From a virus (Duplodnaviria; Heunggongvirae; Uroviricota; Caudoviricetes), in IMG/VR virus record IMGVR_UViG_2703718828_000007: 42,721 nucleotides of DNA. The stretch is one strand, 5' to 3'. Below, piece by piece: positions 9,339-14,754 of this stretch (its first letter is position 1; each line of letters opens with the position of its first letter). Position numbers and translations under genes: made by a program. Below the pieces are notes generated by a model. That model was not told the origin of the DNA, made no database searches, and saw only the letters and a list, made by a program, of their open reading frames with translations.

Positions 9339-9878
9339 ATGCAGTCACTATCACTTCATCAAAATAGCGGATATCAAACGGCTGCGATGATAAATCGCAA
9401 TCAACCTGTCTCGGTAGATAAACATGACCAGATCCGCGATGCCGTTCGTGCGTGGGCGGGTGTAGATGGTCAGGATGTCGTTTCTGCTCTGATCATCGAA
9501 GAGTACCAGGCTCAAGGGGGAGACGAGATCACTTTCCCTGATGACCTCAGCCGACAGCGTCAGAAGCTTTTCCGCTTTCTGGATAACCATTTCAACAGCG
9601 AACGGTACCGCGAAAACGTTCGCCAGCTGACTCCGGCAATCCTCGCTGTCCTGCCGATTGAATACCGCAATCGTCTGCTACCAGAAGACAACGTAATGGC
9701 TCGTCTGGCAAGGCTGGAGAAGGAAACCAGCGAAGCGAAGATTGCTGTCGCAATGGATGCGCCACGTCATCAGAAGCTGAAAGAGTTGAGCGAGGGGATC
9801 GTGGAGATGTATCGCGTTGACCCTGGGTTAACCGGTCCGTTGATGGAAATGGTGCAGATTATGCTGGGGGCTATATGA
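9339..9878 (+). CDS. YdaT-like protein (Rac-type early module)
   Basis: 179 aa; segments EEYQAQGGDE and TPAILAVLPIEYRNRLL resemble Rac YdaT as recalled; position after cro-like gene. Confidence 0.45.
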   Translation: MQSLSLHQNSGYQTAAMINRNQPVSVDKHDQIRDAVRAWAGVDGQDVVSALIIEEYQAQGGDEITFPDDLSRQRQKLFRFLDNHFNSERYRENVRQLTPAILAVLPIEYRNRLLPEDNVMARLARLEKETSEAKIAVAMDAPRHQKLKELSEGIVEMYRVDPGLTGPLMEMVQIMLGAI

Positions 9879-9929
9879 CCGGTTCAAAAATGGCGAAAGC
9901 CGCGGTGCTCGAACACCAACGGCTTTCAG

Positions 9930-10871
9930 GTGCAAAAACAGTGCGTAATTGCGGAGAACAGTATGTCAAACACCGCTGAAATAATCAATTTCCCAAATAA
10001 AACCGAACAACCGGGAGGTCGTATGGCCGACCTGTCGAACGGGTATACCAAGGTCGCTAACGAGATCCAACAGCTTAAGCCTCGCCTGAGACTGTCAGGC
10101 CGGGAATGGCAATGTTTTGAGGCGGTGATCTGGCTTACCTACGGCTGGAACAAGAAACAGGACCGCGTGACAAATACGGTTATTGCCGAGCTTACGGGCC
10201 TGAGCGATACGCATGTATCGGACGCGCTTAAGTCTCTCGCAGAACGCAAAATCATCTTTTCACAGAAGCAGGGCATGATGAAAATCGTCGGTGTAAACAC
10301 TGACCTTTCAGCATGGATTTTAGACAAACCGGAAACGGGAAGAAAATTCCCGAAAACGGGAAAATCCTTCCCGAAATCAGGAATAACCTTCCCGAAAACG
10401 GTAGACACCCAATACAAGAACAAGAACAGTATTAAAAGATCTTCGTCCGAGAATTCTGACGAATCCTCTGACGCACGTCTGAAGAAATTTTTATCAACTC
10501 ATCCTGAAGCTGCGGTCTACACACCATCCGGTGCGAAGTGGGGCTCTGCTGAAGACCTCGAGACAGCTAAGTGGATTTCCTCCAGGGTGAAGCTGATTAA
10601 CCCAACCTGCAAAGCCCCGGACATGACCTCCTGGTCTAACACTGTTCGCCTGATGCGCCAGATAGACAACCGGTCGCACCAGGACATCTGCGCGCTGTAT
10701 GACTGGGCTAGCAAACACCACTTCTGGCAGACCAACATCCTGAGTCCCGAAAGCCTGCGTAAGCAGTGGGACAAGCTGACAATGCAGCGTAACGCCGGAG
10801 GTGAGCAGCGCGCTGTCAAGCCAGATCTGGACTTCAACAACACTGACTGGGCCTATGGGGTGATCCGATGA
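9930..10871 (+). CDS. Replication initiator, lambda O-like, with internal origin iterons
   Basis: 313 aa; four 21-bp-periodic repeats in mid-gene encoding FPKTG/FPKSG/FPKT; 4-nt overlap with P-like gene. Confidence 0.6.
   Translation: MQKQCVIAENSMSNTAEIINFPNKTEQPGGRMADLSNGYTKVANEIQQLKPRLRLSGREWQCFEAVIWLTYGWNKKQDRVTNTVIAELTGLSDTHVSDALKSLAERKIIFSQKQGMMKIVGVNTDLSAWILDKPETGRKFPKTGKSFPKSGITFPKTVDTQYKNKNSIKRSSSENSDESSDARLKKFLSTHPEAAVYTPSGAKWGSAEDLETAKWISSRVKLINPTCKAPDMTSWSNTVRLMRQIDNRSHQDICALYDWASKHHFWQTNILSPESLRKQWDKLTMQRNAGGEQRAVKPDLDFNNTDWAYGVIR
10326..10409 (+). repeat. Iteron array (candidate replication origin) inside O-like gene
   Basis: Four direct repeats of TTCCCGAAAACGGGAA-like units starting at about 10326, 10347, 10368, 10389, followed by an AT-rich tract. 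Confidence 0.5.
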
Positions 10872-11557
10872 AATCTCTTGCAGAGCAGATGCGTAACCAC
10901 GACCGCGAGCAGATGAGCCGCATGGCCCATAACCTGCCAGAGCAGTACCAGGAGTGCGCGCCGGTCGAGCAGGTGGCGCAGGTATTCAACAAGCTGTTCA
11001 ACGAGCTGCGCGCCGCGTTCCCGGCCAGCATGGCGAACTTCCGCACCCAGGAAGACCTGAACGAATTCCGCCGTCAGTGGCTGCTGGCGTTTCAGGAGAA
11101 CGGGATCCACACCATGGCTCAGGTCGATGCCGGCATGCGCATTGCCCGCCGCCAGGAGCGCCCATTCCTGCCGTCGCCGGGCCAGTTCGTCGCCTGGTGC
11201 AAGCAGAGCGGCGGCGCGCTGGGCGTCAACGTTGACCAGGTGATCGCCGAATACTGGGACTGGCGTAACCGCTCGTTCGAATTCATCTCCAGCGAGCAAT
11301 TTCCATGGTCGCAGCCGGTCATGTACCACATTTGCGTAGAATTGCGCCACCGCAGCACCGAGCGCCAGTTAACGCATGGTGAACTGGCACGCGAGGCAGG
11401 CGATCTGCTGGACATGTGGGAAAGGCGCGTCACCGAGGGTAAGCCAGTGCCGCCGGTACGCCGGGCTATTGCCGCACCAGCTGCCGAGCAAGGGCCGACG
11501 CCGATCCAGCTGCTGCTGGCCAAGTACAACCGCAACAAGTCGAACGGGATGGTGTGA
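10868..11557 (+). CDS. Replication protein P-like (helicase loader)
   Basis: 229 aa, translationally coupled to O-like gene; assignment mainly by position and size. Confidence 0.5.
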   Translation: MKSLAEQMRNHDREQMSRMAHNLPEQYQECAPVEQVAQVFNKLFNELRAAFPASMANFRTQEDLNEFRRQWLLAFQENGIHTMAQVDAGMRIARRQERPFLPSPGQFVAWCKQSGGALGVNVDQVIAEYWDWRNRSFEFISSEQFPWSQPVMYHICVELRHRSTERQLTHGELAREAGDLLDMWERRVTEGKPVPPVRRAIAAPAAEQGPTPIQLLLAKYNRNKSNGMV

Positions 11558-11558
11558 C

Positions 11559-11799
11559 ATGAACATAACAATCCGTGAGCAGGTGCTGGCAGCCCTGCGC
11601 AACAACCCAGGGTTGAACAACGCCAAACTGGCAGGGCTTCCCGGAGTGGTACATCATCGATCAGGACTATCGGGGGCAGAAGTACGCGAAGGACAAGCAG
11701 GTTGCGCGTTGTGGCAACGCAGTTCCGCCGCCATTCGCCGAGGCACTGGTGAGGGCTAATTTACCGGAGCTTTGTCAGCAGAAAGAGATCGCAGCTTAA
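11559..11799 (+). pseudogene. Frameshifted C-terminal remnant of a C5-cytosine DNA methyltransferase
   Basis: Frame +1 reads WQGFPEWYIIDQDYRGQKYAKDKQVARCGNAVPPPFAEALVRANL (QGFP and GNAV motifs of motifs IX-X); ATG at 11559 is in another frame; no N-terminal catalytic domain present. Confidence 0.45.
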
Positions 11800-11898
11800 T
11801 GTCCGAGTTTCAGAACATGGTGTAACAAATCCTGCTACTTCAATGACGTAGATTCAAACCTGATATAATTAGGCTCTTCACAACACGAGGAGCCTAAA

Positions 11899-12135
11899 AT
11901 GCACCATTACATGATCCCTATCAACGGAACTGTTCACCTGATCAAGACTGACTCTCTAATCCCTGAAGGGACTGAGTATAGCTTTGAAGGAGAAAGTCTA
12001 ATCTGCGCTCATGCCACTTTTAAATCTGGGACGTATGGCTTCCTGATACCAAAGGGAAATCAGTTGAATAGAGAGCATGCGTTCTGGCATGTAAGTGGAA
12101 TTCACCCTAATCCCCTGGGAATGGATAAATCGTAA
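11899..12135 (+). CDS. Hypothetical small protein (78 aa), moron-like
   Basis: GAGGAG RBS, AT-rich upstream with TATAAT-like -10; flanked by duplicated methyltransferase 3' tails. Confidence 0.4.
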   Translation: MHHYMIPINGTVHLIKTDSLIPEGTEYSFEGESLICAHATFKSGTYGFLIPKGNQLNREHAFWHVSGIHPNPLGMDKS

Positions 12136-12404
12136 TCCATAATATGCATGCCATCGTCCTGAACATACGGTGGCATGCATCCGGCACTACAACAGAAACG
12201 TTAAAGTGCAAACAATACAATTCGAGCAATATTCAACCTGTCACAGATGGCGAATACCACCGCCATTTCGTGCATTCTGTGGTTTCTATTACCCATTGCG
12301 TTAATGCTGTCCAATCATCAGCTCGCTGAGGCGCTGGTTAGGGCTAACCTACAGGAGCTTTGTCAGCAGAAACAAATAGCGGCGTAATAAAACATCGCTA
12401 ATTC

Positions 12405-12432
12405 AACCCGCTACGGCGGGTTTTCTTTTTTT
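12405..12432 (+). terminator. Rho-independent terminator
   Basis: CCCGC-TACG-GCGGG hairpin followed by T-run. Confidence 0.5.
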
Positions 12433-12494
12433 ACTACTGACAGAAAATTAACAATTTGTGCTCTTAAAGCGTTGATCATTTCCGCGCATAGGTA

Positions 12495-12514
12495 TACTGT
12501 ATAAAAACACAGTA
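12495..12514 (+). promoter_or_regulatory. LexA box (SOS operator) upstream of dinI-like gene
   Basis: TACTGTATAAAAACACAGTA matches CTGT-N8-ACAG consensus perfectly. Confidence 0.65.
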
Positions 12515-12532
12515 AATGCAATGGGGGCCATT

Positions 12533-12766
12533 ATGAAAGTTGAATTAACCATTGATCGCATGAAAGAACTTCCTAAAGGCGCAGTACCAGCACTGGAGAA
12601 AGAACTGCTTAAGCGCCTGAATGATCACTATGACAATTGCAGGCTCACAATCCGCCGTGCCGGGGCCGATGGGTTAAGTGTTTTTGGTGGTGACAAGGAC
12701 GATAAAAAGAAAATTGAATCAATCCTCCAGGATACCTGGGAAAGCGCTGACGACTGGTTTTATTAG
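12533..12766 (+). CDS. dinI: DinI-family DNA-damage-inducible protein
   Basis: MKVELTIDRMKELPKGAVPALEKEL ... ILQDTWESADDWFY closely resembles DinI (from memory); GGGGG RBS; LexA box upstream. Confidence 0.75.
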   Translation: MKVELTIDRMKELPKGAVPALEKELLKRLNDHYDNCRLTIRRAGADGLSVFGGDKDDKKKIESILQDTWESADDWFY

Positions 12767-12883
12767 AATTGCGCTTAAGGCTGGCGCGCATTTTTCAGAA
12801 TACCGCAATTTGCGTAACCCTCTGATGCTGCTGCCGACAATCTTTAATCGCGTCTGTTAGTCGCTCGAAGGGAGAACATAAAT

Positions 12884-13132
12884 GTGAGTGATTCAGCTTT
12901 GCAAACGTCAGAAGACAACTGGTATGACATTGTAAGAAGGTCTGACGGCTGCGTGGTGTTTAGCTTTCCTTCATCGGGCAGGCATCTAATTTATCGCGTC
13001 AATGGCATGGTTTCTATGCGGCCTTTGCTGGATGATGAAGAGGTCTTTACTCCTAATGGTTTTATGCAGTTTATTAACCGTCTCGGCTACCGGGTAACCC
13101 AACCTTCTGATAATATGAAATCAACGGTCTGA
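12884..13132 (+). CDS. Hypothetical protein (82 aa)
   Basis: ORF with GGGAG RBS; GTG start per track. Confidence 0.35.
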   Translation: MSDSALQTSEDNWYDIVRRSDGCVVFSFPSSGRHLIYRVNGMVSMRPLLDDEEVFTPNGFMQFINRLGYRVTQPSDNMKSTV

Positions 13133-13166
13133 ACAACCGTAACCTACTGCGCCACGGAGAGAAACC

Positions 13167-13766
13167 ATGGCGCACGAACTACAACTCATCAAGCAGTCAT
13201 CAGGAATCCTGATCCCCGCGACGCCGGAGACCAGCGATATTCTGCAATCAAAAATCAAACTCGGCGCCGTGCTGGTAGCCGAATTTCGCCAGGTGAGGAA
13301 TCCCGCATTCCATCGCCGTTTTTTTGCGCTCCTGAATCTCGGGTTTGAATACTGGGAACCTACTGGAGGGGCGATATCCAGCAATGAGCGTAAGCTCGTA
13401 AATGGTTATGCTAAATTCCTCGCGGCATTTGGTGGAAACGAAGGCGCACTGCTGGATGCTGCCGAGCAATATCTGGACCGCATCGCCGATAAGCGCGCCG
13501 GTAGCATCAGCATCTGCAAATCCTATGATGCTTATCGCGCCTGGGTGATCGTCGAGTCTGGTCACTATGACGCTATTCAGCTTCCTGACGGAACACTTCG
13601 CAAACATCCCCGCAGTATTGCCTTCGCTAACATGGACGAAACCGAGTTCCAGCAGCTGTACAAAGCCGCGCTCGATGTTCTGTGGCGATGGATACTCTCC
13701 CGATCATTTCGCAGTTGTGAAGAGGCAGAAAACGCCGCCGCCCAGCTGATGAGCTTTGCGGGGTGA
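13167..13766 (+). CDS. Nin-region phage protein (DUF1367/YbcN-like, tentative)
   Basis: 199 aa; sits upstream of YbcO-like and RusA as in DLP12 nin region. Confidence 0.4.
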   Translation: MAHELQLIKQSSGILIPATPETSDILQSKIKLGAVLVAEFRQVRNPAFHRRFFALLNLGFEYWEPTGGAISSNERKLVNGYAKFLAAFGGNEGALLDAAEQYLDRIADKRAGSISICKSYDAYRAWVIVESGHYDAIQLPDGTLRKHPRSIAFANMDETEFQQLYKAALDVLWRWILSRSFRSCEEAENAAAQLMSFAG

Positions 13767-13972
13767 TGGCGATGAAATTTTCCTGGTTCCACCATCACGA
13801 ATGCACCACCGAACAGGCCGACGAGCTGGTGGAGAAATACCGGGCGCGCGGTGTAAAGACAGAGCGCAGCCTGAATCGCGACAACATCACCTGGACCGTC
13901 AGCGCGCAATTGCCGGAAGGCGACAACGCGCCTCGCCCGAGCCGGGTATGGCAAAGCAAGGCGTGGGGGTGA
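13766..13972 (+). CDS. Hypothetical small protein (68 aa) of nin region
   Basis: ATG overlaps upstream stop (TGATG); between YbcN-like and YbcO-like genes. Confidence 0.35.
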   Translation: MAMKFSWFHHHECTTEQADELVEKYRARGVKTERSLNRDNITWTVSAQLPEGDNAPRPSRVWQSKAWG

Positions 13973-13974
13973 GC

Positions 13975-14265
13975 ATGGCAAATTTACGCAAAGAGGCTCG
14001 TGGTCGTGATTGTCAGGTTCGAATTCCCGGCGTCTGCAACGGTAACCCGGAAACGTCTGTACTGGCGCACATTCGCCTGGCCGGGTTATGTGGCACCGGA
14101 ATCAAACCGCCTGATCTGATTGCCACCATTGCATGCTCTGCCTGTCACGACGAGATCGACCGCCGTACACATTTTGTCGATGCTGAGTATGCTAAAGAAT
14201 GCGCGCTGGAAGGTATGGCGAGAACGCAGGTTATCTGGCTGAAAGAGGGGGTAATCAAGGCGTGA
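13975..14265 (+). CDS. YbcO-like protein (DUF1364, putative nuclease)
   Basis: 96 aa from internal Met [14 protein letters not shown]..; Cys/His-rich; immediately upstream of rusA. Confidence 0.5.
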
Positions 14266-14624
14266 ATACTTACAACATCACATTGCCCTGGCCGCCGAGC
14301 AATAACAGCTACTACCGCCATAATCGCGGGCGCACGCACATCAGCGCAGAAGGGCAGGCATACCGCGATAACGTCGCCCGAATCATTAAAAACGCAATGC
14401 TGGATATCGGTCTGACTATGCCTGTGAAAATCCGCATTGAGTGCCACATGCCGGATCGCCGTCGCCGTGACCTGGATAATCTGCAAAAGGCCGCTTTTGA
14501 CGCACTCACCAAAGCAGGTTTCTGGCTGGACGATGCTCAGGTCGTTGATTATCGCGTTGTGAAGATGCCCGTTACCAAAGGTGGAAAGCTGGAACTGACA
14601 ATCACCGGGCTGGAGGCCGTATGA
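14262..14624 (+). CDS. rusA: Holliday junction resolvase RusA
   Basis: GTG start; 120 aa [50 protein letters not shown]... nearly identical to E. coli RusA as recalled. Confidence 0.85.
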
Positions 14625-14754
14625 CATTTGAATCCTGTTTTTCCGATCACCTCCGCGTTCGCTGGCAGCGGCTTCGCTTATACCACTTTCCCGGCTCTGT
14701 GCTAACGGACTACCGGATACTGAAAAATTACATCAAAACCATAGGCGGTGCTGT

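Follow-up and report, generated by a model that had tools for sequence, protein, structure and literature searches.

Methyltransferase relics and a putative accessory cassette in the early-right region of a lambdoid prophage of Escherichia coli

The locus and its features

The DNA considered here, a stretch of 42,721 nucleotides (IMG/VR record IMGVR_UViG_2703718828_000007) that is called the window throughout, is a lambdoid prophage of E. coli. The locus lies in its early-right (nin) region, which is phi80/mEp237-like, and has the following features.

9930-10871: O-like replication gene, left of the locus
10868-11557, + strand: gene for replication protein P (phi80 gene 14 homologue), the intact left neighbour, annotated in mEp237 and in E. 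coli genomes
11559-11639, + strand: first 27 of the 114 codons of a ren-like winged-helix gene, all that is left of ren
11559-11759, + strand: chimeric 66-codon ORF, ren codons 1-27 followed by out-of-frame methyltransferase tail; RefSeq WP_001299077.1
11631-11639, + strand: deletion junction with one retained copy of GCAGGGCTT, present twice in mEp237, 718 bp apart
11632-11799, + strand: tail 1, the last 55 codons and stop of a C5-cytosine methyltransferase gene, with motifs IX (QGFP) and X (GNAVPPPF)
11861-11869, + strand: predicted extended -10 element of ORF78, TGATATAAT, read from the sequence; mEp237 has an annotated promoter there
11870-11896, + strand: hairpin (inverted repeat I5) with the ORF78 Shine-Dalgarno sequence in its 3' arm; -15.5 kcal/mol, z -6.1
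11887-11892, + strand: predicted Shine-Dalgarno sequence of ORF78, GAGGAG, read from the sequence
11899-12135, + strand: ORF78, a 78-aa protein, phrog_30079 over its full length at 6.9e-49; equivalent to mEp237 gp47
12144-12180, + strand: stem-loop directly 3' of the ORF78 stop; 14 pairs, no U-tract, -21.8 kcal/mol, z -4.1
12289-12387, + strand: tail 2, what decay has left of the final ~33 methyltransferase codons, with a 1-nt insertion near 12319 and motif X destroyed
12405-12432, + strand: intrinsic terminator, also found 3' of the intact methyltransferase stop codon in Klebsiella phage 5 LV-2017
12495-12514, + strand: LexA box, near-consensus TACTGTATAAAAACACAGTA, 5' of the dinI homologue
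12533-12766, + strand: dinI homologue, NF007893 at 3.7e-26; DinI in the mEp237 and E. coli annotations

Tail 2 is attached to the right-hand module, formed by the LexA box and dinI (12495-12766), and the dinI promoter block with its LexA box is kept in Salmonella phage SEN34 and Citrobacter phage Chris1. E. coli AR_0118 (NZ_CP020048.1) is 100% identical to positions 11400-12520, only ~95% identical over 9874-14626, and its prophage gives no alignment with most of the remaining window. Judged by these alignments, the window prophage is a different mosaic from that of AR_0118, with the early-right segment in common.

Tail 1, ren and two deletions

The frame that opens at 11632 translates as QGFPEWYIIDQDYRGQKYAKDKQVARCGNAVPPPFAEALVRANLPELCQQKEIAA*. 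This 56-aa piece matches Pfam PF00145 (DNA_methylase) at profile positions 287-320 of 324 (E 0.004) and two phage methyltransferase families, phrog_23072 (E 8e-23) and phrog_116 (E 2e-14). By tblastn it is 96% identical to residues 658-712 of the intact 712-aa methyltransferase of locus L014, and when that enzyme was searched against the whole window only residues 658-712 (tail 1) and 692-712 (tail 2) were matched. The same search found no motif I (FxGxG, AdoMet binding), IV (PC, catalytic cysteine) or VI in the window, and the N-terminal motifs of the methyltransferase of E. coli H6, which match PF00145 profile positions 4-115, have no counterpart there. No in-frame start codon was found for tail 1; the sole upstream ATG, at 11559, is in another frame. 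As a member of PF00145, tail 1 thus has the C-terminal motifs IX and X and lacks the catalytic motifs and a complete ORF. The motif matches speak for homology, not for function, and tail 1 is, on its sequence, a homologous non-functional remnant of a C5-methyltransferase and not an enzyme. Programmed frameshifting was considered and rejected because no in-frame methyltransferase N-terminus is available for joining. For tail 2, the chimeric ORF and the methyltransferase remnant alike, nothing suggestive of a function was found.

The ATG at 11559 is the start codon of ren. Up to the junction the ren piece is 100% identical to mEp237 gp44, which at full length matches phrog_142 (Ren-like exclusion protein) at 1.8e-28 and also PF13412 (HTH_24). 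The full winged-helix domain of ~110 aa that characterizes phrog_142 is not present in the window. In the chimeric ORF the 27 Ren residues are followed by 39 residues of out-of-frame methyltransferase sequence, and apart from a sub-threshold HTH_24 hit on residues 5-25 there was no family match in Pfam, PHROG, PADLOC or NCBIfam. A function is not expected for this ORF or for the methyltransferase remnant.

How ren came to be joined to the methyltransferase tail is seen from mEp237 (NC_019704). Its identity to the window is 100% up to 11639 and 99.7% from 11631 on, with 718 extra bases between the two pieces. The BLAST pieces overlap by 9 nt, and these are GCAGGGCTT, sited at both ends of the 718-bp interval. 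The overlap and the extra bases show that the window carries a short-direct-repeat deletion: as in other microhomology deletions, the relative without the deletion has two copies of the repeat, the junction has one, and the interval between has been lost exactly. On this sequence comparison the deletion joins ren codons 1-27 to the last 55 methyltransferase codons in the +1 frame. It may have occurred by replication slippage or by RecA-independent recombination, between which the sequence alone does not discriminate. The 718 extra bases, in mEp237 as in E. coli CUWW10, whose flanks likewise match the window at 99.7-100%, carry the ren-like gene, gp45 and a 134-codon methyltransferase fragment. 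CUWW10 represents the undeleted mEp237 form, and PGAP flags its methyltransferase as a pseudogene without an N-terminus. All 30 complete E. coli genomes among the matches listed align with the deleted form as one uninterrupted piece; a coverage of at least 80% is reached by 32 genomes, CUWW10 among them. An assembly artefact at the junction was rejected, since the same junction is found in ~30 independent complete genomes.

The 134-codon fragment of mEp237 (gp46) is itself the result of an earlier truncation of a methyltransferase gene of ~660-715 aa. Between E. coli H6 and mEp237 the identity is 99.7% across P, ren and gp45, as far as L001 position 3761. Beyond that point H6 has an ead/Ea22-like gene, HNH, DUF4014 and two small ORFs, and then a full 662-aa methyltransferase. 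The homology of mEp237 to the intact L014 methyltransferase begins at L001 position 3750. From this overlap it follows that the first deletion spanned the interval between the 5' end of the ead-like gene and approximately methyltransferase codon 590. The 12 overlapping bases hold the repeat GGTGG(G/C)CTG, similar to that of a short-repeat deletion but imperfect.

Tail 2 and the ORF78 cassette

Positions 11735-11800 and 12323-12388 form a direct repeat with a spacing of 588 and 55 of 66 positions identical (83%). When tail 1 was compared by BLAST with the whole 42.7-kb window, tail 2 was recovered at E 8.6e-13 and the next best match had an E above 1. The Smith-Waterman local score of the two tails is 72, to be compared with a mean of 15.7 and a maximum of 27 for shuffled sequences. 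In tail 2 the last 21 codons can still be read, with CGNAV changed to CVNAV at the degraded motif X, and in the alignment with intact methyltransferase genes the homology reaches left to ~12289. The 5' part, 12289-12322, is far more degraded than the last 66 nt, an unevenness that is not explained by a single simple event. The window's two tails share an identical 19-nt stretch, GGAGCTTTGTCAGCAGAAA, which is not found in L007 or L014. This run hints at a later gene conversion or recombination within tail 2, which would be an ad hoc addition to its history. The sequence CCACCGCCATT (12257-12267), which matches the PPPF codons of tail 1 over 11 nt, was set aside as probably due to chance.

Over the last 21 codons the tails differ at 11 of 63 nt, and the differences fall in 10 codons, 8 of them synonymous and 2 not. 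Because the changes are mostly synonymous, the tails appear to be two alleles that diverged while coding rather than a duplicate that drifted in place. Tail 2 is present in the window, in mEp237, in L007-L010 and in L014/L015; it is absent from H6, L012 and L013. In L014 it accompanies an intact methyltransferase gene and ORF78, in a segment that matches window positions 11631-12381 at 91.5%. Since tail 2 there stands beside an intact gene, it is older than the upstream gene's decay and no by-product of it. Similarity among the three lineages represented by the window, L007 and L014 stops at or just past the tail 2 stop codon. Beyond it the window has the terminator and LexA-box dinI, L007 a 60-aa ORF and theta, and L014 other ORFs. 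Salmonella phage SEN34, which has no methyltransferase, carries a comparable short relic (...LVRASLPELCQ...) ahead of the terminator and dinI. Tail 2 is therefore best read as a putative remnant of another methyltransferase allele, left by module exchange.

ORF78 lies between the two tails. Homologues of the same length and 39-41% identity occur in three other contexts. For example, one follows the intact 662-aa methyltransferase gene of E. coli H6 (41% identity, equal length and promoter), and another the intact 657-aa methyltransferase gene of the metagenome locus L012 (39%). A closer homologue (95%) follows the intact 712-aa methyltransferase gene of L014/L015 (assembly GCA_001062165.1). 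In L013 an ORF78 homologue has no methyltransferase at all; it lies beside a different gene near an integrase gene, and the promoter block GACGTAGATTTAAACTTGATATAAT is shared. A word-indexed protein search gave two close ORF78 clusters, to which an exhaustive phmmer search of 1.84 billion representatives added two distant ones, for four clusters at 50% identity; the other phmmer hits were spurious (long proteins). A degenerate-pattern scan of one-genome-per-species contigs found no ORF78 relatives.

That ORF78 is real as a gene is supported by these length-conserved homologues at ~40% identity, among which Y-G at positions 46-47 and HPNPL at 69-73 are invariant. Among close relatives dN/dS is ~0.6-1.1 on only 5-14 differences, too few to judge, so that selection is supported only by the long-range conservation. 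The AlphaFold model (pLDDT 80.5) has a beta-sheet and a C-terminal helix. It has no structural relative, and for the protein there was no defence-family match, with PADLOC, NCBIfam and Pfam all empty. In RefSeq E. coli genomes that hold ORF78 at 99-100% identity it is not annotated, and the adjacent chimera is annotated instead.

A strict scan for consensus sigma-70 promoters over 11400-12900 called none, and the -35 of ORF78 is weak. The predicted promoter hence rests on the extended -10 and its conservation: TGATATAAT is kept in five contexts, one of them with a different upstream gene, and the block GACGTAGATTYAAACYTGATATAAT at the promoter is kept in L014, L007, H6 and L013, the last without an upstream methyltransferase. 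The hairpin that holds the Shine-Dalgarno sequence starts directly after the extended -10, and its anti-Shine-Dalgarno arm is kept in L007, H6 and L013 and weaker in L014. From its position, transcripts begun at the ORF78 promoter would lack most of the 5' arm, and read-through transcripts could mask the Shine-Dalgarno sequence. On the other side of the gene, the core of the stem-loop at 12144-12180 is a perfect 10-bp inverted repeat, ATGCATGCCA and TGGCATGCAT, at 12144-12153 and 12171-12180. This structure is kept in L007 and L014, where substitutions mostly preserve pairing, and it was not called by the terminator scan. The spacer of ~56 bp that follows (12189-12246, to tail 2) is absent in L007-L010 and present in L014 and mEp237, apparently another small indel polymorphism.

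ORF78 and its predicted promoter can be considered a self-contained cassette, in most but not all cases found behind this methyltransferase. The cassette fits the usual description of a moron, a putative independent accessory gene, since it lies between genes that are adjacent in Klebsiella phage 5 LV-2017 (methyltransferase, terminator, dinI). Its role can be suggested only tentatively. ORF78 might represent a new family of accessory factors expressed in the lysogen, acting for instance in superinfection exclusion or host modulation, although this is a rather doubtful proposal. With its Shine-Dalgarno sequence sequestered by the hairpin, it would perhaps be translated only from its own lysogen-active promoter and be blocked on read-through lytic transcripts. 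If so, the hairpin would be a simple built-in switch that responds to transcript origin.

As to what is observed, the description above agrees fully with the initial annotation of this DNA. That had noted C-terminal methyltransferase motifs only, in one frame, as now placed at 11632-11799 by PF00145, phrog_23072 and phrog_116, with an ATG at 11559 in a different frame, which is found to open the 66-codon ORF ending at 11759. It had also noted a diverged second tail ~590 bp downstream (spacing 588, 55/66 identical, E 8.6e-13), frameshifted upstream as the 1-nt insertion and the homology to ~12289 confirm. The 78-aa ORF with promoter-like sequence and ribosome-binding site between the tails was likewise recognized (11899-12135, with TGATATAAT and GAGGAG), as was the perfect 10-bp inverted repeat, which extends to 14 pairs. 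It is in the explanation of these features that the two accounts part.

History of the locus and related systems

The region very probably represents what stepwise decay and the shuffling of modules have left in a phi80/mEp237-like E. coli prophage. The starting arrangement, seen in relatives, would be an 85-aa ORF, a C5-cytosine methyltransferase gene for 660-715 aa and the promoter with ORF78, downstream of P, ren and gp45. In one sub-lineage, a non-homologous recombination would then have joined this module to a phage whose own methyltransferase gene was cut to its last ~100 bp; this became tail 2, still attached in the window to the terminator and the LexA-controlled dinI. Where this step falls in the order of events, and which allele gave rise to tail 2, is inferred from a small number of loci. 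The next step, directly visible in the comparison of genomes, was the deletion at GGTGG(G/C)CTG, which reached from the beginning of the ead/Ea22-like gene to roughly methyltransferase codon 590; with ~590 codons lost, it yielded the mEp237/CUWW10 state and its 134-codon fragment. The 718-bp deletion between the GCAGGGCTT copies, again evident from the comparison, removed ren codons 28-114, gp45 and 79 more methyltransferase codons, and left the start of ren out of frame with the last 55 methyltransferase codons, as in the window. The ORF78 cassette (extended -10, Shine-Dalgarno sequence, downstream hairpin) persists through all stages, and the conserved 3' end of the methyltransferase gene may since then have provided the homology at which further exchanges took place.

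A public protein of 142 aa (P0003) consists of the N-terminal part of a YdaT/CII-like ORF fused to ORF78 residues 21-78; the counterparts in the window are 9339-9878, joined to 11959-12135. Such a fusion implies that some prophage has a much larger deletion, with the O, P and ren genes and the methyltransferase remnant gone, and is further evidence that the region is eroded by deletions.

The initial annotation had explained the locus as a frameshifted methyltransferase gene whose 3' tail was duplicated around an inserted ORF. In its explicit form, a full methyltransferase would have been inactivated by a frameshift, and insertion of ORF78 into its 3' end would have duplicated ~100 bp of target. 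Such a history would account for the position of ORF78 between two methyltransferase 3' ends in the window, mEp237, L007 and L014, and for its having a predicted promoter of its own and occurring once, in L013, without a methyltransferase. It is nonetheless quite unlikely. The frameshift falls away because it is ren that starts at the out-of-frame ATG, and because the junction was made by the 718-bp deletion between 9-bp direct repeats that fuses the start of ren to the tail. The duplication is contradicted by the tails themselves, whose 17% difference, with 8 synonymous and 2 non-synonymous codons, is that of alleles which diverged as coding sequence. It is contradicted as well by H6 and L012, which have an intact methyltransferase and an ORF78 homologue but no second tail, and by L014, where the second tail stands beside an intact methyltransferase; and no transposase, att-like site or terminal repeats were found around ORF78. 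The earlier idea of a recombination scar survives as module exchange at a methyltransferase gene; the part of it that made the tails a duplication from ORF insertion does not, given that 8 of the 10 differing codons are synonymous.

Two further readings would make genes of the short ORFs. It is very unlikely that the 66-codon ORF (11559-11759) encodes a genuine, conserved small protein, such as a wHTH regulator that was truncated and gained a new C-terminus, even though it has the start context of ren, is annotated in RefSeq (WP_001299077.1) and is identical in ~30 genomes. Only 27 of 114 wHTH residues are left and the recognition helix is lost; the remaining 39 residues are out-of-frame methyltransferase codons without a family match; and the genomes that carry it are near-identical in DNA, so its conservation is uninformative. 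An intact conserved small protein was the alternative that the initial annotation had itself raised for this frame. What is found is a ren-methyltransferase chimera. Hardly more credible, indeed the least so, is the suggestion that tail 2 is kept as part of a small gene, a 46-aa membrane protein or toxin upstream of dinI. A 46-codon ORF (12247-12387) does overlap tail 2, with a hydrophobic N-terminal half, MANTTAISCILWFLLPIALML..., of which the stretch ISCILWFLLPIALML is common to L014. Against this, no Shine-Dalgarno sequence was found before 12247, the L014 equivalent ends after 30 codons, tail 2 of L014 has an in-frame stop, L007 lacks the ATG and there is no family match. By its sequence the 46-codon ORF is probably not a gene. 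The preferred reading thus remains stepwise decay combined with module shuffling.

Each of the elements in that reading has known counterparts. In mEp237 (NC_019704 / JQ182730) the segment gp43-gp48 has the same P, methyltransferase tail, annotated promoter, ORF78 (gp47), tail 2, terminator and dinI. It differs in that mEp237 keeps the whole ren-like gp44 (114 aa), gp45 (65 aa) and the 134-codon gp46, the 718 bp being absent in the window. The annotation of gp46 reads 'DNA methyltransferase, similar to the C-terminus of' a Klebsiella enzyme. The parent arrangement is therefore already in GenBank, with the fragment correctly described, as gp46 in mEp237 and as a pseudogene in CUWW10. A search of the literature on mEp237 found only irrelevant or non-specific papers.

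The remnant also resembles the orphan C5-cytosine methyltransferases of prophages, proteins of 660-715 aa encoded in the lambdoid nin region at the same position downstream of the replication genes. Intact relatives are found in E. coli H6 (WP_073464677.1), Klebsiella phage 5 LV-2017 (ARB15725.1) and L014 (in GCA_001062165.1). In H6 and L014 the gene is followed by ORF78, whereas the gene for the 715-aa enzyme of the Klebsiella phage leads to the terminator and dinI without ORF78. Unlike the intact enzymes, the window lacks the AdoMet-binding and catalytic part and keeps motifs IX-X only. For hosts of this prophage, phage-encoded m5C activity from this locus is not to be expected. RefSeq WP_001299077.1, a 66-aa 'hypothetical protein', combines ren with an out-of-frame methyltransferase tail as the result of a deletion.

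As a whole the locus is ordinary lambdoid mosaicism together with prophage decay, of a kind already known, and has little importance beyond annotation. Its sole point of interest would be the role of ORF78 and the possible restriction of its translation by the Shine-Dalgarno hairpin. Lambdoid mosaicism with joints at gene boundaries, gene remnants and morons has reportedly been described by Hendrix, Juhala, Clark and colleagues. The likeness extends to novel joints at or near gene ends, to short relics of a replaced gene and to a small promoter-bearing gene between genes that are adjacent in relatives. There is no difference in principle, except that here the intermediates are available. The locus can serve as a worked example in which sequenced genomes hold the intact, once-truncated and twice-truncated stages of one methyltransferase gene, stages that show how a lambdoid prophage gene is eroded via short-repeat deletions while a neighbouring accessory cassette is kept.
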